A stretch of DNA of 11,603 nucleotides from a bacterium. GTDB taxonomy: Bacteria; Patescibacteriota; Patescibacteriia; SG8-24. The stretch spans positions 1 through 11,603 of the forward strand of contig JAHFIV010000036.1 of the NCBI GenBank assembly GCA_023246225.1. The letters are read 5' to 3'. Below, one piece after another: positions 1-10,326 of this stretch. The position numbers and the translations under genes were made by a program. Position 1 is the first letter of the stretch; every line of letters begins with the position of its first letter. The notes under the pieces are model-generated. The model was not told the DNA's origin. It worked only from the letters and a program-made list of their open reading frames with translations, and searched no databases.

Positions 1-128
1 CCTCCGAGCCGGAATCCAAAAAAATACAAAAGCCAAACGAATCTCGTTTGGCTTTTTTTACGTTCTGGATTCCGGCTCGGAGGCCGGAATGACAAGAAGT
101 GGGTCCCGGATCAAGGCCGGAATGACAA
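1..128. repeat. Copy A of an intergenic nested-inverted-repeat element (MITE/BIME-like), truncated on the left by the window edge. The right arm TTCTGGATTCCGGCTCGGAGGCCGGAATGACAA runs 63-95, with an extra outer half-repeat GGCCGGAATGACA at 115-127.
   Basis: Near-identical to copies at 2444-2598, 6085-6258 and 7671-7816. The arms are reverse complements of each other around a central hairpin. The right flank GAATGACAAGAAGTGGGT is shared with copy D. Confidence 0.8.
17..59. terminator. Bidirectional rho-independent terminator inside repeat copy A. It lies downstream of aceA on the minus strand.
   Basis: A-tract 17-31. Hairpin GCCAAACGA-ATCT-CGTTTGGC at 32-52. T7 tract 53-59. On the minus strand the hairpin is followed by TTTTGTATTTTTTT. 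The aceA stop codon is at 142-144. Confidence 0.7.
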
Positions 129-2443: not shown

Positions 2444-2598
2444 TGTCATTCCGGGCCGTCTTTCTTTGTCATTCCGGCCTCCGAGCCGGAATCCAGAAAA
2501 ATAAAAAGAACAAACAAAATTCGTTTGGTCTTCTTTTTTACGATTCTGGATTCCGGCTCGGAGGCCGGAATGACAAAAAAATATGGGCTGGAATGACA
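2444..2598. repeat. Copy B of the nested-inverted-repeat element.
   Basis: Left half-repeats TGTCATTCCGGGCC and TTGTCATTCCGGCCTCCGAGCCGGAATCCAGAAA. Central A-rich run then CAAAC..GTTTGG then T-rich run. Right arm TTCTGGATTCCGGCTCGGAGGCCGGAATGACAA plus outer GGCTGGAATGACA. Confidence 0.85.
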
Positions 2599-2673: not shown

Positions 2674-4494
2674 CTAGCCGCCGTTCGCGACGCCGACCTT
2701 GGCCGGTGCCGCCTGCGGTGCGGGGGTGGAAACGGGTGCGCTCCCGCTGTCCTCGGCGGATCCGCTGAGACGTGTAGCCGCGGCGTTCAGCACCTTGCCG
2801 AGCGTCGCACCGGCACCTTGGACGATCTCCTTGGTGTCGTTGCTGGCGGCGGCGAAGAAGCCGTCGACCTTGGTCGCGAGCGTCATGCCGTCCATGAAGC
2901 TCCTGCTCATCCTGCCGACGTCCTCGGGGCTGCCGAAGACCTGCGCCGAGATGGAGCTGGAGAACTGGGCCATGGCCTTGGCACCTTCGATGCGGATCTC
3001 CGCCTCCTTGGTGATACGCAGCTTGGCGAGCTCGAAGTCCTGCATCGCCGAACCGTGCTCTGCGCGAGCCTCGAGCTCCTTCAGAAGCACGTTGACCTTG
3101 CGCTGCTCGACGTCGACTTGCGCGCTGGCCACGTCGACCGGCACCATCGCCTCGGCCTTCTGACCTCTGGCACGTGCCTCGGCCGCGGTGGACTCGGCGT
3201 TCGCCTTCTTGGTGATCGCCTCCGCCTCTGCGTCCGCGGCAGCCTTCTGGCCTTCGGCTTTCTTCTGGAGTCCGTAAGCCACGGCGTCCGCGGCCTTCTG
3301 GGCCTGGACGTACGCTGTCTGCGCGGTCGCTTCGGCGCCGATGACCTGCGTGGTCTTGGCGCGCTCGGCTTCGGCGGTGACCTTCACGGTCGTGATCGCC
3401 TGCCGCTCGGTCTCGCGCGCGGCTTCCGCCGTGGCGAGCTCGGCTTCCTTCGCCGTGCGTCCCGCTTCGGCCTGCGCGATCGCCGCCTGCTTGGTGCGTT
3501 CGGCGACCTCGATCGCTTGCTGCTGGGTGCGCTTGGCGACCTCGATCGCTTGCTGCTTGTCGATGTCGGCGAGATCGATCGCTTTCGTGGTGGCGATCTT
3601 CTCCTGCTCCGTCGCCTGGGTCTGCTGCGCCTGGGCGACAGCGATCAGCGACTGCTGTGTGGCTTCGGCTTCAGCCTGTTCACGCAGCAGATCCAGCACC
3701 GCCTTCTTGGTGGTGACGTCCTGCGAGGTCCGCGCCTGCTCTCCCTCACGCTCGAGCTGGTTGCGCTCGGTCTTCTTGGCCTGCACGATGCGAGCCACGA
3801 CTGCCGCACCCTGCGCATCGAAGATGTTGTGATCGCTATTTAGGGCCACGAGATCGGTCTGATCGAGCTTGGAGATGGTGACACCTTCGAGTGTGAAGCC
3901 GTTCTGCTGCAACTCGAACTTCACGATCTTCGTGACCTCCGCCACAAACTGATCACGCTCTCGATTGAGAGCTTCGAGATTCATGGTAGTTGCAACGGAA
4001 CGAAGGGCTGACACGAGCTTGGTTTCGATGAACTCGTTGAAAAGCTTCCAGTCCCCCATGTACTCGCTGCATGAACGTGCCGCTTGCTGGATGCTGTCGA
4101 GATCGGGTTGCACCCGAATGTAAAACTCCGTGGTCACATCGGCACGAAGCATGTCCTTGGTGAGGAGCGCGTTCTTGCCATCTTTTGCGACCACAAGCTT
4201 CCTGCTGCCGAGTGGGACTCGAACGAGCGTATGCATGAACGAGATGACCAGCACACCACCATCCTTGATCACCTTCATTCCACCCGTACCCGTGCGGACG
4301 AGAGCCTCGTTGGCCTTCGTCTTGTGGTAAAGGTGAGTGACTGTGGCAAGAATGCCGGCGAGGATCGTGAGTGCAACTCCGCACACGAGCAACACTGTGG
4401 TTGCGAGGATGCCGAGCGAATGCCCGAGCGCGCTTGCGGTGACCGGTCCTGCGATGAGCAGGAGTCCGAAGACGAGGAGTAGTACGATTCCCAT
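2674..4494 (-). CDS. SPFH/band-7 flotillin-like protein (YqiK-like) with an N-terminal membrane anchor and a long Ala/Glu/Gln-rich coiled coil.
   Basis: EALVRTGTGGMKVIKDGGVLV matches the E. coli YqiK QAFVRTGLGGQKVVMSGGAIV region. An SPFH core is followed by about 250 aa of EAEA/QQA heptad-hendecad repeats. The start is chosen at MGIVLLL (ATG 4492-4494, weak GGAAAGAGAG upstream). The alternative ATG at 4548 has no SD. Confidence 0.85.
   Translation of the reverse strand: MGIVLLLVFGLLLIAGPVTASALGHSLGILATTVLLVCGVALTILAGILATVTHLYHKTKANEALVRTGTGGMKVIKDGGVLVISFMHTLVRVPLGSRKLVVAKDGKNALLTKDMLRADVTTEFYIRVQPDLDSIQQAARSCSEYMGDWKLFNEFIETKLVSALRSVATTMNLEALNRERDQFVAEVTKIVKFELQQNGFTLEGVTISKLDQTDLVALNSDHNIFDAQGAAVVARIVQAKKTERNQLEREGEQARTSQDVTTKKAVLDLLREQAEAEATQQSLIAVAQAQQTQATEQEKIATTKAIDLADIDKQQAIEVAKRTQQQAIEVAERTKQAAIAQAEAGRTAKEAELATAEAARETERQAITTVKVTAEAERAKTTQVIGAEATAQTAYVQAQKAADAVAYGLQKKAEGQKAAADAEAEAITKKANAESTAAEARARGQKAEAMVPVDVASAQVDVEQRKVNVLLKELEARAEHGSAMQDFELAKLRITKEAEIRIEGAKAMAQFSSSISAQVFGSPEDVGRMSRSFMDGMTLATKVDGFFAAASNDTKEIVQGAGATLGKVLNAAATRLSGSAEDSGSAPVSTPAPQAAPAKVGVANGG
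3502..3590. repeat. In-frame 33-nt tandem repeat, two good copies and a diverged third, inside the flotillin coiled-coil region.
   Basis: GGCGACCTCGATCGCTTGCTGCT occurs at 3502-3524 and 3535-3557. A third unit GGCGAGATCGATCGCTTTCG follows at 3568-3590. This encodes 11-aa repeats QQAIEVAKRT, QQQAIEVAERT and KQAAIAQAEAG. Confidence 0.7.
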
Positions 4495-4553: not shown

Positions 4554-5270
4554 TCAGTGCGTCGTCGTCAGGTCGTCGGCGGGGTTCGCCTCGACCGTGA
4601 AGCAGTCCTGTTCCTGATCGTAGTCGATGATCAGAATCTCTATTCCCTTCGGAAGCTCACCGTTCTCGGTGCGCACCGCGATGTCGTAGACACCGCCTTT
4701 CGAATCCAAAACTCTCGCGAGCCCGAACTTCTGATCAGCGGGGAGAAGCAGAGTGCCGGTCGTACCGACGAAGTCCTGCTTGCGGACGTTGTGCGTCTCG
4801 GTCATCGGCATCACGCGGTTCAGCCCGCGAGCGATCTTCCCCGTGAGGAAAAACGACACGAGAGAAGCGACTGCGAACGATACCGGTGCGTAGACGTACA
4901 CTGAGACGAGCGACTGGAGCGCCGCGTTCACGATCAGACCTGTGCAGCCGAACACCATCGACATGATCATCAGAATGATCGTGACCGGGACGCGCCCGAT
5001 ACCGATGTAGCTGAACAGCCTGGAGAAGAACGAACGCTCGTTTCCCTCTCCGGCGGGTGCGACCGCGAGCGGGTTGTGGCCGCGCTCGTTGTCGGTGTCG
5101 TGATCGTGCTCGGTGTCGTGACCGACGTCGTGATCTCCCTCGATGTCGTGATCGACATCGAGGTCGGCATCGTGGCCGATGAAGCCCAGCACTGCGCCGA
5201 GGACCAGCAAGATGCCGAATCCGAGCGAGATGATGAAAATCAGATTCTGTGGCTCGAGAAAAAACTCCAT
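4554..5270 (-). CDS. NfeD/YqiJ-like membrane protein, the usual operon partner of SPFH proteins, with a His/Asp-rich loop.
   Basis: Sits immediately upstream of the flotillin gene and is co-oriented with it. It has N-terminal TM helices, a C-terminal soluble beta-rich domain (VYDIAVRTENGELPKGIEILIIDYD), and a loop GHDADLDVDHDIEGDHDVGHDTEHDHDTD. The start is chosen at MEFFLEP (ATG 5268-5270) because AGAGGAG sits 6 nt upstream. The upstream ATG at 5297 has no SD. Confidence 0.75.
   Translation of the reverse strand: MEFFLEPQNLIFIISLGFGILLVLGAVLGFIGHDADLDVDHDIEGDHDVGHDTEHDHDTDNERGHNPLAVAPAGEGNERSFFSRLFSYIGIGRVPVTIILMIMSMVFGCTGLIVNAALQSLVSVYVYAPVSFAVASLVSFFLTGKIARGLNRVMPMTETHNVRKQDFVGTTGTLLLPADQKFGLARVLDSKGGVYDIAVRTENGELPKGIEILIIDYDQEQDCFTVEANPADDLTTTH
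5090..5180. repeat. Degenerate GTCGTGATC-like short repeat tract encoding the His-Asp-rich loop.
   Basis: Minus-strand coding of HD dipeptide runs. The plus strand shows reiterated gtcgtgatc / gtcgtgacc / gtcggcatcgtg units. Confidence 0.45.
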
Positions 5271-6062: not shown

Positions 6063-6090
6063 AGTATACATGTCCCTTCTCCATTGTCAT
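6063..6090 (-). promoter_or_regulatory. Putative sigma70-type promoter for the DedA gene, with the -35 supplied by the repeat terminus.
   Basis: On the minus strand: ATGACA (the complement of 6085-6090, which is the TGTCAT end of repeat copy C), a 16-nt spacer, then TATACT (complement of 6063-6068). This places the start site about 14 nt upstream of the ATG at 6042. Confidence 0.35.
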
Positions 6091-6258
6091 TCCGGCCAAC
6101 CTTTGTTGTCATCCCGGACCTCCCTCTCTTGTCATTCCGGCCTCCGAGCCGGAATCCAGAAACGTAAAAAAGGATCAAATAAAATCTGCTTGGTTACTTT
6201 GTTGCGTGGATTCCGGCTCGGAGGCCGGAATGACAAAGAAAGATGGTCCAGAATGACA
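6085..6258. repeat. Copy C of the nested-inverted-repeat element, with a degenerate central hairpin.
   Basis: Three left half-repeats (TGTCATTCCGGCC, TGTCATCCCGGACC, TGTCATTCCGGCCTCCGAGCCGGAATCCAGAAA) and two right ones (GGCCGGAATGACAA, CCAGAATGACA). The centre is CAAATAAAATCTGCTTGG with no clean T-tract. Confidence 0.85.
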
Positions 6259-6266
6259 ATCGCGAT

Positions 6267-6864: not shown

Positions 6865-6893
6865 TTGACAACGCAAGCGCGCATCACTACGCT
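6865..6893 (+). promoter_or_regulatory. Putative promoter for the 6913 gene.
   Basis: TTGACA at 6865-6870, a 17-nt spacer, then TACGCT at 6888-6893. GGAGG at 6903-6907 precedes the ATG at 6913. Confidence 0.3.
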
Positions 6894-6912
6894 GAGAGTC
6901 TCGGAGGAAACC

Positions 6913-7656
6913 ATGAACCTCGAACAGTTCCTTGATACAAGCCGACGCGAACATACAGAACTCAGCTTGCGTAGCGCGCTCGGTGCGCGACGCATCGATG
7001 CCGCGGAGGCGCTCGAAAAAAACAAACAACTCCTCGAGCGCTACACTGCGGTGATCACCGCATTCGATGGATTAGAGCGGTGCTCGAGCGCAGGGTACAT
7101 GATGCGCGAGCATGTGCGGTGGATGTTTGTTGCGCGGTACACCGCCTCACAGGTGCTGAGCACAGTGAAGCCGACAGCACTCGAATGTGTGATCGTTCCC
7201 GAAGCGATCGTTACGCAGAATCGCCATCTGCCATGCCACGACGCGCTCGCTACTTCTGGTGCATGCGCGATGCGCACCGTCTCTTTCACCAGTCAGCAGA
7301 TCGCCGAGGAAGCTGTAGCGGTATACGCCAGCGCAAACGTTCGCATCGGTGAATACGAAGACGCGTTGATCGAAATGTGTCGCGCCTGCGGAGAAAAATC
7401 GGTTGTGGTTTGCAAGCACTCGATCAAAGTCGAGGAGGACGATCACGAGATCACGCTGTATCGTCTGTGCATGCACTGCCCGAATCTCCAAGAGATCGCG
7501 CGCATGACCAGCCTCGGTCCCACGCACGGTGATCTCGACACGCTCTTTCCGCGGACGACGGAAGTGATAACAGAGGGGGCGGTCGCTCCCACGACTTCCG
7601 CATCCCCCATCCAGACGAATCCAGACGAGGCTACCGCACCCGAACCGGTGCGGTAA
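6913..7656 (+). CDS. Hypothetical Cys-rich protein with a putative zinc ribbon (CRAC-x8-CKH ... CMHC) and a Pro/Thr-rich C-terminus.
   Basis: GGAGG lies 5 nt upstream of the ATG at 6913. The track ORF starts at a TTG at 6865 that coincides with the -35 hexamer. No recognised family. Confidence 0.6.
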   Translation: MNLEQFLDTSRREHTELSLRSALGARRIDAAEALEKNKQLLERYTAVITAFDGLERCSSAGYMMREHVRWMFVARYTASQVLSTVKPTALECVIVPEAIVTQNRHLPCHDALATSGACAMRTVSFTSQQIAEEAVAVYASANVRIGEYEDALIEMCRACGEKSVVVCKHSIKVEEDDHEITLYRLCMHCPNLQEIARMTSLGPTHGDLDTLFPRTTEVITEGAVAPTTSASPIQTNPDEATAPEPVR

Positions 7657-7670
7657 CGACCCTCTTCTTT

Positions 7671-7816
7671 GTAATTCCGGCCACCACCTTGTCATTCCGG
7701 GCTCGACCCGGAATCCAGAAAAAATAAAACAACCAAACGTAATCACGTTTGGTCTTTTTTTACGATTCTGGATTCCGGGTCGAGCCCGGAATGACAAGAA
7801 GTGGGTTGGAATGCGT
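7671..7816. repeat. Copy D of the nested-inverted-repeat element. It is a variant with compensatory changes and an intact central bidirectional terminator.
   Basis: Left GTAATTCCGGCC then TTGTCATTCCGGGCTCGACCCGGAATCCAGAAAA. Centre is an A-tract, then CCAAACG-TAATCA-CGTTTGG, then TCTTTTTTT. The right arm TTCTGGATTCCGGGTCGAGCCCGGAATGACAAGAAGTGGGT is the exact reverse complement of the left arm. Confidence 0.85.
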
Positions 7817-7877
7817 TGCGTGTGGTTCATGAAATTTCCTCCACCACAAGCAAACACGATCCGCAATTTAATATTTT

Positions 7878-8309
7878 TTAAATATTCTTCACCTCAAGAA
7901 TGTGCGGCTTGATGAATACCTTGATCGACGCAACTTCTTCATCTTTCTTTTTTGCATCACTCGCCGCGACATTTTTTGCAAACTGGTAGAGAACGAGTGG
8001 TGGAATATGAAGCCACTTCTGATTCTTGTGCAAAAAATACAGTAGCGTCATCACTGCGATGCGTTTGTTGCCGTTCTCAAAGGGATGATTCTTAATCATC
8101 AAATAAAAAAGTGCCGCAGCTTTGTCGAGCAGCGTCGGATACAATTCGCGTTTGTCGTATGTTTGTTGCGGAACAGAAAGACAACTCTCGAGACGATTGG
8201 GATACCGAGAAGCGAACGGAGGGATCGGTTCACCCCCCTCCATCATCTGACGCGCGAGCTCATGCGCAACGCATTCGACTTCTCCAAGCGTGAGATATTC
8301 CATACTCAT
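7878..8309 (-). CDS. doc: Doc-family (Fic-fold) toxin, death-on-curing-like kinase.
   Basis: HPFENGNKRIAV matches the Doc variant of the Fic motif HxFx(D/N)GNKR. The protein is about 140 aa. Its start codon overlaps the upstream gene's stop by 4 bp (ATGA). The region is AT-rich. Confidence 0.8.
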   Translation of the reverse strand: MSMEYLTLGEVECVAHELARQMMEGGEPIPPFASRYPNRLESCLSVPQQTYDKRELYPTLLDKAAALFYLMIKNHPFENGNKRIAVMTLLYFLHKNQKWLHIPPLVLYQFAKNVAASDAKKKDEEVASIKVFIKPHILEVKNI

Positions 8310-8566
8310 TCTTTGGCGAGCGCACGAAACGTTTCACCGTACTCATCCAACGCTTGTTTCACCACTTTTTGAATTTCGAATTTTTTCTCCGCAGAAAGAT
8401 CGGTGCCCAAAAGCAGCGGCATATCTTCTGCCAAAACAATGAATGATCGGCCGATTTTTGCAGCCTTCAGCTTCCCTGACTTCACCCAACGAAAAACAGT
8501 AATTCGGCTCACCCCGAGCAATTCCGCGGCTTCTTTAAGAGAGAAATGCGACTTTGTTGCACTCAT
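8306..8566 (-). CDS. HTH DNA-binding protein (excisionase/MerR-like HTH_17). Presumed antitoxin and autorepressor of the Doc module.
   Basis: LKEAAELLGVSRITVFRWVKSGKLKAAKIG is a classic excisionase-family HTH. It is translationally coupled to doc. The start is taken at ATG 8564-8566 (MSATKS). The track's first codon is a TTG at 8582-8584 inside the operator palindrome. No clear SD for either start. Confidence 0.65.
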   Translation of the reverse strand: MSATKSHFSLKEAAELLGVSRITVFRWVKSGKLKAAKIGRSFIVLAEDMPLLLGTDLSAEKKFEIQKVVKQALDEYGETFRALAKE

Positions 8567-8572
8567 ATAGAG

Positions 8573-8615
8573 ATAGTGTAACAATTGTTACATGATATGT
8601 CAAATAGTGTAACAA
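8573..8615. promoter_or_regulatory. Putative operator for the HTH-Doc operon. It has a 16-bp perfect palindrome and a direct 12-mer repeat.
   Basis: TGTAACAATTGTTACA at 8577-8592. ATAGTGTAACAA occurs at 8573-8584 and again at 8604-8615, 31 bp apart. The palindrome lies between the putative -35 (TTGACA, complement of 8598-8603) and the -10 (TACACT, complement of 8575-8580). Confidence 0.5.
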
Positions 8616-8670
8616 AATAAACTCTCTCTAAACTAGGTGGATATTTCGTCCTTAGTGTCAGGAACTTTAT

Positions 8671-8698
8671 AATATAAAAACACCCGCTCAAGAGCGGA
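8671..8698 (-). terminator. Terminator downstream of the tRNA-His gene (tRNA operon).
   Basis: Hairpin CCGCTC-AA-GAGCGG, or CCGCT-CAAG-AGCGG, at 8683-8697. On the minus strand it is followed by a T-rich tract (complement of AATATAAAAA at 8671-8680). Confidence 0.5.
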
Positions 8699-8706
8699 TG
8701 TTTTTA

Positions 8707-8782
8707 TGGGGTGGCCAGAGGGAATCGAACCCTCATCAGCGGGACCACAACCCGCTGTGCTAACCGTTGCACCATGGCCACC
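8707..8782 (-). tRNA. tRNA-His (anticodon GUG) with G-1 and an encoded CCA.
   Basis: Reverse complement is GGTGGCCATGGTGCAACGGTTAGCACAGCGGGTTGTGGTCCCGCTGATGAGGGTTCGATTCCCTCTGGCCACCCCA. The cloverleaf folds with anticodon loop UUGUGGU. The extra 5' G pairs with discriminator C, as is typical of bacterial tRNA-His. Confidence 0.92.
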
Positions 8783-8843
8783 ATGTCATTCTTAGGAGTC
8801 GCCGACGCACAATAACGTATCTTCTTCACCCTTTCAAGAGGGG

Positions 8844-8918
8844 TGGTGCCCCCGGTAGGAGTCGAACCCACATCACGCGGGTAGAAACCGCGTGCTCTAT
8901 CCATTGAGCTACAGGGGC
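8844..8918 (-). tRNA. tRNA-Arg (anticodon UCU) with an encoded CCA.
   Basis: Reverse complement is GCCCCTGTAGCTCAATGGATAGAGCACGCGGTTTCTACCCGCGTGATGTGGGTTCGACTCCTACCGGGGGCACCA. Acceptor GCCCCUG/CGGGGGC, T-loop TTCGACT, anticodon loop UUUCUAC. Confidence 0.9.
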
Positions 8919-8932
8919 GTAACTCTCTGCGG

Positions 8933-8961
8933 AAGATACCTCTCTAAAGGCCCGACGTCAA
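8933..8961 (-). promoter_or_regulatory. Putative promoter of the tRNA-Arg/tRNA-His operon.
   Basis: On the minus strand: TTGACG (complement of 8956-8961), a 17-nt spacer, then TATCTT (complement of 8933-8938), about 8 nt upstream of the mature tRNA-Arg 5' end. The -35 overlaps the palindrome GTCAATC-GAGG-GATTGAC at 8957-8974. Confidence 0.35.
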
Positions 8962-8969
8962 TCGAGGGA

Positions 8970-8998
8970 TTGACAAATCGACCTTATTATGGTAGCAT
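8970..8998 (+). promoter_or_regulatory. Putative divergent promoter for the small ORF at 9039.
   Basis: TTGACA at 8970-8975, a 17-nt spacer, then TAGCAT at 8993-8998. It shares the palindrome with the tRNA promoter. Confidence 0.3.
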
Positions 8999-9038
8999 CT
9001 TTGGTTCCATTGCGTTGGGACTTACAGAGGAGAAAAAC

Positions 9039-9245
9039 ATGCGTTCTCGGATTCGCTATGGCTGGGATAGCACAGTTGCGGAGTTCCCCGACACGCGCGA
9101 GCTGATGAATCGCGCGTCAGCGGCGCTCAGTCTCCCCGTCGACGACGATGATGAGAAGGAGCGACTGGTCGGAGTGGCAGAAGACTCGTTCAGCAAGCGC
9201 GAGTTCAAGAAGTGCGAGGAGGCGCTCATCAGGCTCGGTCTCTAG
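9039..9245 (+). CDS. Small acidic hypothetical protein (68 aa, DDDDEKE tract).
   Basis: GAGGAG lies 6 nt upstream of the ATG. A strong terminator follows. The track ORF's N-terminal extension overlaps tRNA-Arg and is rejected. Confidence 0.5.
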   Translation: MRSRIRYGWDSTVAEFPDTRELMNRASAALSLPVDDDDEKERLVGVAEDSFSKREFKKCEEALIRLGL

Positions 9246-9263
9246 GCGACATACCTGCTCGAA

Positions 9264-9295
9264 GGCCGGCGGTTCTCAGGACCGCCGGCTTTTTC
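9264..9295 (+). terminator. Rho-independent terminator between the convergent small ORF and the xer gene.
   Basis: 9-bp stem GCCGGCGGT/ACCGCCGGC, loop TCTCAGG, then TTTTT. Confidence 0.75.
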
Positions 9296-9299
9296 AATG

Positions 9300-10241
9300 T
9301 CATTTTTTCTTTTTTCCTTTTGCGTGAAAGGCGTTGTATACCTCGCGCAGTCGTTCATCGGTGATGTGCGTGTAAATTTGTGTGGTCGTGATCGACGAAT
9401 GACCGAGCAGTGTTTGCACACTGCGAATGTCAGCGCCGTTTCTGAGTAAGTCAGTGGCGAATGTATGACGCACCGTGTGCGGCGTGATCCGTTTTGTGAT
9501 TCCCGCTGCGCGCGCATAGTGTTCGACGATGCGTTGCACACTGCGCGGAGTGAGACCGCCATCATAGTCGCGACCTTTTCGCGCGCGATCATGACTCGTA
9601 AATAAAAATGGCGACATGTCTTTTCTTTTCGCGAGATATTTTTCAATCCAATATCGCGCTTGATTCGAAAGAAACACCACGCGCGGTTTGTCGCCTTTTC
9701 CACGCACCGTAAATTCTTCGCGTTTCAAATTGATCGTTTCTTTTTTGAGTCCTGCGAGTTCGGAAACGCGCAGCCCTGTCGAAAATAACATTTCAAGAAT
9801 TGTTTTGTCGCGCAAACGAACAACGTCCGCGTTCGCTTCACCACCTCGACTATTTTTAAACGGCGCTTCGAGCAAGCGCTCAAGCTCCTCCGCATCGAGA
9901 AACGCAACCGAACGCTCGGGCATTCGCGCGAGTTCAATTTTTTCTGGTGCGAGGGTTTTGACGTCACGCTTCGAAAGATATTTGAGAAAAGATCGGAGTG
10001 CGATCAGATGATAATTCTGTGTATTTTTTTTCATCCCCTTTCCGTGTTGATCTTTGTAACGATTCAACCACACGCGATACTGGCGCACGAGATCGAGCGT
10101 GATTTTTTCTGGTGTGATATTTTTCGACCAAAGAAAAAATCGTCGCAAATAAAAATCGTAATTTTTTACGGTTCGTTCGGAACGGTTCCGTTCCACCTCG
10201 AGATACACGAGGAAGTCACTAATCAAATTTGTTGCGGGCAT
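9300..10241 (-). CDS. xerC: XerC/XerD-family site-specific tyrosine recombinase.
   Basis: It aligns along its whole length with E. coli XerC/XerD from memory, sharing the motif blocks TVKNYDFYLRRF, DKTILEMLFSTGLRVSELAGL, VRGKGDKPRVVFL, HTVRHTFATDLLRNGADIRSVQTLLGHSSITTTQIYTHI, and a Lys-rich tail like XerC. The XerC versus XerD assignment is uncertain. The GC content is lower than in flanking genes. Confidence 0.85.
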   Translation of the reverse strand: MPATNLISDFLVYLEVERNRSERTVKNYDFYLRRFFLWSKNITPEKITLDLVRQYRVWLNRYKDQHGKGMKKNTQNYHLIALRSFLKYLSKRDVKTLAPEKIELARMPERSVAFLDAEELERLLEAPFKNSRGGEANADVVRLRDKTILEMLFSTGLRVSELAGLKKETINLKREEFTVRGKGDKPRVVFLSNQARYWIEKYLAKRKDMSPFLFTSHDRARKGRDYDGGLTPRSVQRIVEHYARAAGITKRITPHTVRHTFATDLLRNGADIRSVQTLLGHSSITTTQIYTHITDERLREVYNAFHAKGKKKK

Positions 10242-10252
10242 AGAGTCTCTAC

Positions 10253-10258
10253 ATTATA
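10253..10258 (-). promoter_or_regulatory. Perfect TATAAT -10 box for the xer gene, implying a near-leaderless transcript.
   Basis: The complement of ATTATA at 10253-10258 gives TATAAT, with only 11 nt between the -10 and the ATG at 10241. There is no SD, and no good -35. Confidence 0.4.
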
Positions 10259-10284
10259 CGTCACATCTTCTGGCTGAGATAGAG

Positions 10285-10326
10285 CACAAAAAGAAAACAC
10301 CCCGCGTGGAAGACCATGCGAGGTGT
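10285..10326 (-). terminator. Terminator of the 10359-10856 gene, just upstream of the xer promoter.
   Basis: Hairpin ACACCCCGCGTGG-AAGA-CCATGCGAGGTGT (13-bp stem, 2 mismatches). On the minus strand it is followed by TTTTCTTTTTGTG. Confidence 0.6.

Follow-up and report, generated by a model that had tools for sequence, protein, structure and literature searches.

The window considered here is an entire 11.6-kb metagenomic contig (11,603 nucleotides; JAHFIV010000036.1 of assembly GCA_023246225.1) of the patescibacterial lineage SG8-24. It carries four copies, A, B, C and D, of a nested palindromic element, all of them intergenic, and a fifth copy, E, is present on the contig L246 from the same lineage (NCBI GCA_023246215.1). 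Our focus is copy D, which lies between a 263-aa open reading frame (ORF) and a Fic/Doc gene, and whose arms appear to be hairpin modules of the kind targeted by the small GIY-YIG nucleases termed Ssn, namely the NTS and the related "Ssn-related motif" (SRM). From the outside in, an element comprises one or two truncated half-modules (TTGTCATTCCGG, lacking the return stem), a full module, a spacer, and then the mirror image of the same. The full module consists of TTGTC, an 8-bp stem, a loop, the return stem and CCAGAA, while the A/T-rich spacer spans about 45 nt. The parts of copy D and its neighbors are as follows:

6865–7656, forward strand: ORF to the left of copy D, ending in its stop codon
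7660–7816: copy D, the whole composite element; an inverted repeat at a convergent intergenic site
7671–7683, forward strand: degenerate outer half-module (GTAATTCCGGCCA), a 5' hairpin half without its 3' half
7688–7720, forward strand: left SRM-type module, with TTGTC, hairpin 7694–7714 (ATTCCGGG/CTCGA/CCCGGAAT) and CCAGAA
7721–7765: A/T-rich spacer with a central hairpin at 7732–7753 (ACCAAACGT..ACGTTTGGT; −10.1 kcal/mol)
7766–7798, reverse strand: right SRM-type module, hairpin 7772–7792, the same as the left module when read on this strand
7803–7816, reverse strand: degenerate outer half-module (GCATTCCAACCC on this strand)
7878–8309, reverse strand: Fic/Doc gene to the right of copy D, with its stop codon towards the element

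Architecture of copy D and its sibling elements

Read on their respective GTC-bearing strands, both arms of copy D take the form GTC-ATTCCGGG-CTCGA-CCCGGAAT-CCAG. The left arm at 7691–7720 on the forward strand (GTC ATTCCGGG CTCGA CCCGGAAT CCAGAA) recurs as exactly the same 30-mer at 7795–7766 on the reverse strand, with 0.00 such matches expected by chance. Likewise, the five full arms of copies A–C all read GTC ATTCCGGC CTCCGA GCCGGAAT CC without deviation, again with 0.00 expected by chance; on the forward strand, the loops of the right arms are seen as the complements TCGAG (D) and TCGGAG (A–C). The eighth, closing pair, C:G in A–C, is inverted to G:C in each D arm, whose loop is shorter at 5 instead of 6 nt, and to this extent the first-pass annotation, which was made from the sequence alone, had described the arms correctly, provided that each is read on the strand stated above. 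Its claim that D preserves the palindrome at every level does not hold: the two arms match perfectly in a 32-nt core (TTGTC..CCAGAA; 32/32), with the agreement falling to 18/36 across the outer 35 nt and 14/24 between the inner halves of the spacer. Each arm folds by itself into an 8-bp hairpin, with energies computed as single-stranded DNA (ssDNA) of −8.5 kcal/mol for D and −8.0 kcal/mol for B (z of about −3.4 to −3.7), and the whole of copy D taken as one ssDNA strand folds into a single long hairpin of −60.6 kcal/mol (z = −14.8).

The sibling elements show the same layout with varying degrees of decay:

1–132: copy A, its left arm cut by the start of the window; right module hairpin at 69–90 (reverse strand), central terminator-like hairpin at 28–56
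About 100–126, reverse strand: outer hairpin of copy A, degenerate but nearly complete, ATTCCGGC-CTTGA-TCCGGGAC, another allele
2437–2610: copy B, hairpins at 2471–2492 (forward) and 2550–2571 (reverse), outer half-modules at 2445 and 2597
6073–6265: copy C, hairpins at 6134–6155 (forward) and 6210–6231 (reverse), outer half-modules at 6086 and 6108 to the left and at 6257 to the right, central hairpin degenerate

All seven full arms of the window set the hairpin between (T)GTC and C-CAG, with C-CAC in its place in the right arm of copy C. Copy B is an inverted repeat with 76-nt arms that are 83% complementary, and a complete version of copy A is seen in L246 at 2945–3095. The lineage contigs were retrieved by exact-protein look-ups, which recovered the same region in the sisters L245 and L248–L250, with L246 extending it by 3.8 kb; L241–L244 represent a relative at 80% identity. 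The elements in the sister L245 are identical to those of the window. Copy E has the arms ATTCCGGG-CCGTGA-CCCGGAAT and ATTCCGGC-CTCCGA-GCCGGAAT, which are mismatched with each other, although each is locally perfect. Within the window, all arms and copies share an identical core of 33 nt, with the spacers being 56–79% and the outer flanks 50–63% identical. Since the core is identical and the spacers have diverged, these appear to be old copies subject to purifying selection on each module, or to repeated overwriting, and the pattern indicates that the copies do not stem from a recent duplication of the whole palindrome.

The decayed outer hairpin of copy A suggests that the outer layers of the elements derive from older modules and do not represent sites of another kind. 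Half-modules consisting of GTC and the 5' half of the stem without its return are seen in the window at 2445–2457, 2585–2597, 6086–6120, 6245–6257 and 7671–7683, and others of the same kind occur in the loci L031, L040, L043, L045 and L118; each precedes a full module of its own strand by 20–23 nt. In the loci taken together, 43 of 518 hairpins have a half-module within 70 nt upstream, as against 15 with one downstream, and the distance is most often 21 nt.

Every copy directly follows a stop codon. Copies B and D lie between convergent genes; copy A is 3' of the gene for isocitrate lyase, copy B has a 248-aa ORF on one side and an SPFH gene on the other, and copy C is between a DedA/VTT gene and a 188-aa ORF. 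The isocitrate lyase gives no guidance on taxonomy, its best named matches, at 72–75% identity, being spread over Patescibacteria, Binatia, Myxococcota and Gemmatimonadales. Copy B is further flanked by independent terminators of the convergent genes (2393–2417, forward; 2647–2623, reverse). The central hairpin of D is flanked by an A-run and, at its other end, by a T-run, because of which the core resembles an intrinsic terminator on both strands, and it was scored as such at 7732–7753 (forward) and 7754–7731 (reverse). By consensus, the spacer cores of A and D are terminator-like on both strands, while those of B and C are degenerate and not so. A spacer core of the form CCAAACG/CGTTTGG is common to copies A, D and E and to an element in L241; among all 250 loci, the composite with this core was found in this lineage and L241 alone, and the sample for arm matching within this sub-family amounts to six elements. 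At the convergent intergenic site between the malate synthase and HAD genes, L246 has copy E and L241 has a plain 40-nt bidirectional terminator. It is plausible that the elements are transcribed through, and that the core of A, D and E acts as a terminator, as side effects.

Pairing within and between the arms

Two collections of related hairpins were assembled, namely 120 metagenome loci fetched with the A–C/D-type hairpin alone as the query, and at least 120 loci from a scan of one genome per species with the pattern GTCATTCCGG-N5-10-CCGGAATCC. Among the genome-scan matches listed are those from Chloroflexota, Pseudomonadota, Patescibacteria, Planctomycetota, Bacteroidota, Clostridia, Fibrobacter and others. 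When the closing pair was left free (S...S) in the metagenome scan, it was complementary in 125 of 125 arms, with CCTCCGAG found 57 times, GCTCGAC 50, CCTCGAG 8, GCTCCGAC 6, CCTCTGAG 3 and GCTCAGAC once; the combinations of closing pair and loop are all present (C-CTCCGA-G 57, G-CTCGA-C 50, C-CTCGA-G 8, G-CTCCGA-C 6). In the genome scan the closing pair can also be A:T or T:A, and it is essentially never unpaired family-wide.

The same pattern extends down the stem. With partner arms chosen by their outer anchors only, in order to avoid ascertainment bias, 339 of 432 cells at pairs 3–8 of the partner hairpins are Watson–Crick, as against 213.5 ± 7.7 upon shuffling. We then consider a MAFFT alignment of 70 distinct partner hairpins (A2), whose sequences are related and sometimes from the same genome, such that its figures are not formal probabilities: paired cells amount to 95.2% versus 74.7% when shuffled, and cells changed on both sides number 101 versus 22.3, values that 0 of 500 shuffles reached in either case. 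The covariation score is 0.511 as against 0.14 for shuffled partners and at most 0.108 for partners slid along the alignment, the slid controls thus being far lower even though they keep the relatedness. Changes on both sides are seen at seven of the eight stem pairs; the closing pair is CG in 36, AU in 12, GC in 9 and UA in 4 cases, and G:U pairs are rare (12/545 cells), being fewer than the 26 unpaired cells. These observations strongly support the action of selection on the local folded hairpin. Thus, the first-pass annotation was right in reading a folded structure under selection into this element, and the covariation check across copies that it had proposed gives a strong signal at the stem positions, one that belongs to the local hairpin. 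An apparent excess of arm differences at stem position 3 was discarded as an ascertainment artefact, one arm per pair having been preselected as ATTCCGG.

The relation between the two arms of an element presents a different picture. Among the loci listed as L001–L240, inward-facing pairs with GTC on the outside dominate (128 convergent versus 10 divergent and 32 tandem), yet the stems differ between the arms in 104 of 121 unique inverted pairs, each being locally perfect. Identical stems occur in two of 74 pairs with a spacer of at most 40 nt versus 15 of 39 with a longer one (Fisher p = 1e-6). Because the arms usually differ unless the spacer is long, the local hairpin rather than the long palindrome is taken to be the selected structure, and conservation of the arm-to-arm pairing as such is not supported. 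Hence, the expectation that variant arms would always come as matched pairs is contradicted, in the wider family as well as by copy E. The first-pass annotation had also taken mismatched arm variants to mean a lack of covariation, thereby merging two levels: mismatched arms are indeed common, yet local covariation is strong. In the element of L241, a CTTGA loop is paired with a 17-nt loop insertion in the other arm, both arms having the same A:T-closed stem. For the ten arms in five elements, the chance of two D-type arms falling in one element is p = 1/9.

The dependence on spacer length would follow if a short spacer makes a long perfect palindrome unstable, or if folding within an arm has to win over arm-to-arm pairing. 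A further arrangement, unlike the inverted pair, is seen in L094 (3086–3320 and 4983–5070), where modules follow one another head to tail with a period of 62 nt, the spacers being nearly identical.

Kinship with the Ssn-targeted hairpin repeats

Hairpin repeats of the NTS/SRM family, which small GIY-YIG nucleases of the Ssn type recognize as ssDNA, were described by Chenal et al. (Nat Commun 2025, PMC11893778). In Neisseria, the NTS has the sequence CGTCATTCCCGCGMAVGCGGGAATCYRG and encloses the dRS3 repeat; the SRM is its generalized form (PMC11893778). SsnA, a small (~100-aa) single-domain GIY-YIG nuclease, binds and cuts the NTS as ssDNA only and on the GTC strand only, with no binding of the RNA form or of double-stranded DNA; cleavage takes place a few nucleotides from GTC on its 5' side and needs the three bases that precede the palindrome, and the C that directly follows it is the most critical residue for binding (PMC11893778). 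In Neisseria the system restricts transforming ssDNA, Wolbachia pipientis carries SRM repeats that are cut by its own Ssn, and an ssn homolog is found in 81% of the genomes with >200 motifs (PMC11893778).

The arms in our window have the same flanks and stem ends as the Neisseria NTS (CGTCATTCC..GGAATCYRG), namely GTC-ATTCC..GGAAT-C-CAG, and both sets of residues reported as critical are present, that is, GTC 5' of the palindrome and C immediately 3' of it. With 8-bp stems and 5–6-nt loops, they are also imperfect, hairpin-forming palindromes of the stipulated 20–50 nt. The likeness further includes the oriented flanks (xGTC-ATTCC...GGAAT-C-YRG), the intergenic occurrence in several copies, the covarying stem, the spread over many phyla, and the flanking of small single-domain GIY-YIG genes elsewhere by the same module variants. 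The differences are a stem core of CCGG as against CCGCG, loops of CTCGA or CTCCGA as against GMAV, and the occurrence of the modules as an inverted pair around a terminator-like core. On these sequence grounds, the arms are hairpin modules of the NTS/SRM type, and the element at copy D is a further member of a family already described in 2025.

The link to GIY-YIG genes comes from the metagenome loci, four of which (of 120) have 86–112-aa ORFs with a GIY-YIG domain only (PF01541, E = 1e-13 to 1e-16) bracketed by modules:

L194, 627–917: GIY-YIG gene, with an A–C-type hairpin ending 8 nt before the ATG and a second 80 nt past the stop
L178, 2279–2539: GIY-YIG gene with C-CTCGA-G hairpins
L123, 756–1094: GIY-YIG gene with C-CTCGA-G hairpins
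L184, 3–173: GIY-YIG gene with a D-type hairpin 200 nt away

In the L178 protein, Y7, Y18 and E65 have the same spacing as Y6, Y17 and E64 of SsnA. Searches of NCBIfam and of PDB sequences with a hairpin-flanked GIY-YIG protein gave nothing diagnostic, and the four genes are here labeled Ssn-like, an assignment made at the level of PF01541. In L194, both flanking modules are oriented like the gene, and the one 8 nt before the ATG could affect its expression.

A second point of contact with known families is the Rfam family WsnRNA46 (RF02625; Wolbachia sRNA 46), which cmscan matched to 7671–7814 with 58.1 bits and E = 1e-10, as against a gathering score of 65.3; B (54.9), C (43.5) and A (24.7 bits) likewise fall below that score. 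Copy D aligns end to end with model positions 1–151 on both strands, sharing the motifs UGUCAU..AUCCAGAAAAA and CUGGAU..AUGACA. The model consensus likewise consists of an inverted pair, UGUCAU-hairpin-AUCCAGAAAAA ... CUGGAU-hairpin-AUGACA. In contrast, the match is sub-threshold, the stem sequences differ and the spacer is unaligned; moreover, Rfam calls the family a small RNA, whereas a DNA-level element is indicated here. We consider that WsnRNA46 is probably the same DNA-level element. Its consensus has the form of an inverted pair of Ssn-type modules, and what the family describes may be a DNA repeat instead of a gene devoted to a small RNA. Plant microRNA families such as MIR2646 also matched in Rfam, far under threshold, and were set aside as the sort of match that any long hairpin can give.

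Among other repeats, the Neisseria dRS3 repeats and intergenic mosaic elements (NIMEs) belong to the same hairpin superfamily, dRS3 being contained in the NTS (PMC11893778). The dRS3 form ATTCCC-N8-GGGAAT differs from the window arms, which are ATTCCGG-N7/8-CCGGAAT. In NIMEs, such hairpin repeats bracket intergenic repeat segments of 50–150 bp. The REP/REPIN systems with their RAYT (IS200/IS605-like Y1) transposases are comparable in being short extragenic palindromes read as ssDNA hairpins, in commonly forming inverted doublets, and in flanking a single-copy domesticated nuclease or transposase gene; they are unlike the present system in that the partner here has a GIY-YIG rather than an HUH/Y1 fold and the 5' flank is GTC, without GTAG. 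The ORFs scanned in the window yielded no Y1 transposase domain. REPs are usually lineage-specific, whereas the NTS/SRM family spans phyla with near-identical modules. The Correia elements of Neisseria and the BIMEs of enterobacteria are likewise small non-coding intergenic inverted-repeat elements that can supply transcription signals. Compared with terminator-carrying miniature inverted-repeat transposable elements (MITEs) of the Correia/BIME type, our elements have no evident target-site duplication or DDE transposase, and their arms are self-folding rather than plain terminal repeats.

Competing explanations and their implications

We believe that copy D is probably best understood as two inward-facing NTS/SRM hairpin modules, together with a terminator-like spacer and degenerate half-modules, that would serve as an ssDNA target of a cognate Ssn. 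Under this proposal, each module presents GTC, an 8-bp stem, a 5–6-nt loop, the return stem and C-CAG, with GTC outermost on each arm, and each arm would fold locally when its strand is exposed by replication, DNA uptake or cruciform extrusion, to be recognized by the putative cognate Ssn of this organism. Selection would then keep the stem pairing along with the unpaired GTC and C flanks; as the pairing and the flanks are what is kept, the closing pair would be free to be C:G, G:C, A:T or T:A. The arms of D would represent a common allele with a G:C closing pair and a CTCGA loop, close to the Wolbachia-type CTTGA loop, and they would match by virtue of the variant having been inherited or copied, followed by purifying selection on each module, with no need for arm-to-arm pairing. 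The half-modules could possibly be slippage or repair scars near the side of reported cleavage.

Four points weigh against this proposal. No GIY-YIG gene was found in the window or on the lineage contigs L245–L250, and the Ssn partner in this organism is thus deduced from the modules. A fully single-stranded element should favor the long hairpin at −60.6 kcal/mol over two local ones of about −8.5 kcal/mol each. The literature assigns a biological role to these repeats in Neisseria only. Finally, the published SRM search string, HGTCWYN(0-2)YYVSBRHN(0-5)WNVSBRGN(0-2)RNCYNB, has no match anywhere in the window, which comes about because the loops of the window arms are CTCGA or CTCCGA and not GMAV. 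This string recovers 79 of 127 (62%) hairpins with a 4-nt G-initial loop, 10 of 85 (12%) with a CTNGA loop and one of 33 (3%) with a CTCCGA loop; nonetheless, the loop classes co-occur in 31 mixed pairs.

The first-pass annotation had explained the matching arms of D by independent mutations on the two sides. Taken literally, D would have begun as an A–C-type element, with each arm gaining the same two substitutions and one deletion by itself. The D arms do differ from those of A–C in the same three ways, but six parallel events would be needed; the variant GCTCGAC is a widespread allele, found in 50 of 125 metagenome arms and in unrelated contigs such as that of a Ramlibacter metagenome-assembled genome (L005); each of the four ways of combining the closing pairs with the loops is represented; in its remaining sequence, D resembles A–C no more than these resemble one another; and the sister L245 is D-type in both arms. 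We therefore regard this scenario as hardly credible: inheritance or copying of a common pre-existing allele is more parsimonious than six parallel changes. A more substantial competitor, which partly overlaps with the Ssn-target proposal and which we hold to be possible though distinctly less likely, is a REPIN- or MITE-like element. Here the inverted pair is the unit: it folds into a single long ssDNA hairpin, in which form a transposase or nuclease copies or mobilizes it, with the arms kept identical by that mobilization or by arm-to-arm gene conversion, the latter being the alternative that the first-pass annotation had mentioned. Consistent with it are the dominance of inverted pairs with GTC outside, the folding of D as one hairpin, the identical arm cores in four of the five lineage elements despite their diverged spacers, the central CCAAACG hairpin that travels with the arms, and the variable presence among relatives at the malate synthase/HAD site; the authors who described the system also likened NTS-ssnA-NTS to an insertion sequence and drew the analogy with REP/RAYT (PMC11893778). 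Against it stand the non-identical arms of copy E and the L241 element, the prevalence of differing stems, with identical arms nearly confined to spacers >40 nt, and the end of arm identity at the core in B, C and D, which fits per-module selection better than conversion tracts. Moreover, no transposase was found in the window ORFs scanned and no target-site duplication is evident by inspection of the flanks, where the element ends are blurred by degenerate half-modules; the matched pair in D, for its part, has the above-noted p = 1/9 under random assortment.

That the element acts as RNA after transcription, as a stabilizer in the 3' untranslated region, a terminator or a small RNA like WsnRNA46, its stems being conserved as RNA helices, appears improbable to us. 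In its favor, one may count the near-threshold WsnRNA46 score, the placement of all copies just past stop codons with B and D between convergent genes, by which they are probably transcribed, the scoring of the A and D cores as terminators, and the GNRA-like form of the commonest loops in the wider family. However, the arms themselves lack a U-tract, and the spacer with its terminator-like hairpin is missing in most of the family and has degenerated in B and C. The GTC..C flanks, being on opposite strands, would leave any transcript with one arm sense and one antisense; this, the rarity of G:U pairs and the indifference of SsnA to the RNA form (PMC11893778) make an RNA role less likely, and ssDNA is the likelier selected form. 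As to the loops, GNA and GNNA loops closed by C:G are exceptionally stable in DNA too, as known from the d(GCGAAAGC) mini-hairpin literature. Thus, of the two options offered by the first-pass annotation, an RNA stem or an ssDNA hairpin recognized by a transposase, the ssDNA hairpin is the likelier, but the partner would be a GIY-YIG nuclease and no known transposase. Even more improbable is a double-stranded function, in which a dimeric DNA-binding protein would use each arm as a palindromic operator, the symmetry being that of two identical half-sites. Any inverted repeat in duplex form is symmetric, and the outer stem, ATTCC/GGAAT, is highly conserved; but at seven of the eight stem positions both sides have changed and complementarity is kept, with C:G and G:C coexisting in the lineage, whereas a dimer reading the sequence would conserve bases rather than pairing. 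Further, the flanks are asymmetric (GTC versus C-CAG), loop lengths of 3–7 nt would vary the spacing of the half-sites, and no activity of the known partner was seen on double-stranded DNA (PMC11893778).

Some features of the surrounding DNA stand apart from these questions. The stretch at 7800–10300 has a low GC content of 39–46%, as against about 60% elsewhere in the window, and encodes the Fic/Doc protein (7878–8309), a helix-turn-helix/excisionase-like protein (8306–8584), tRNA-His and tRNA-Arg (8707–8918) and a tyrosine integrase (9300–10241); from this content, it is probably an integrated mobile element beside tRNA genes. In-frame coding tandem repeats occur in the SPFH gene (3477–3584; three 33-nt units) and in a YqiJ-like gene (5086–5181; 18-nt periodicity). 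Unrelated palindromes are found near the elements in L246 (4895–4955; TTTGGTGCCTGGCACCAAA, twice in inverted order) and in L241 (4185–4215; GGTTCCAGGAACC-TA-GGTTCCTGGAACC), and these may constitute a second repeat family.

In conclusion, the analysis of copy D does not overturn current understanding; rather, it ties an anonymous palindromic repeat of an uncultured bacterium to a nuclease–hairpin system described only in 2025. It also reveals a class of modules, with CTNGA or CTCCGA loops and a CCGG core, that flanks Ssn-like genes and is missed by the published SRM string, on account of which the published genome counts of SRMs may be underestimates. A more speculative extension, which we consider rather doubtful, is that the inverted SRM pair, in this case with a bidirectional terminator of its own, is mobile and represents the MITE- or REPIN-like, non-autonomous counterpart of the NTS-ssn-NTS unit. 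Here, Ssn would nick both outer ends, 5' of each outward GTC and on opposite strands, with copying proceeding via a single-stranded intermediate. The malate synthase/HAD site, filled in L246 and a plain terminator in L241, weakly supports this idea. Were it true, it could explain the half-modules about 21 nt upstream as repair scars, and Ssn would be the engine of an unrecognized class of transposable or homing DNA driven by GIY-YIG nucleases.

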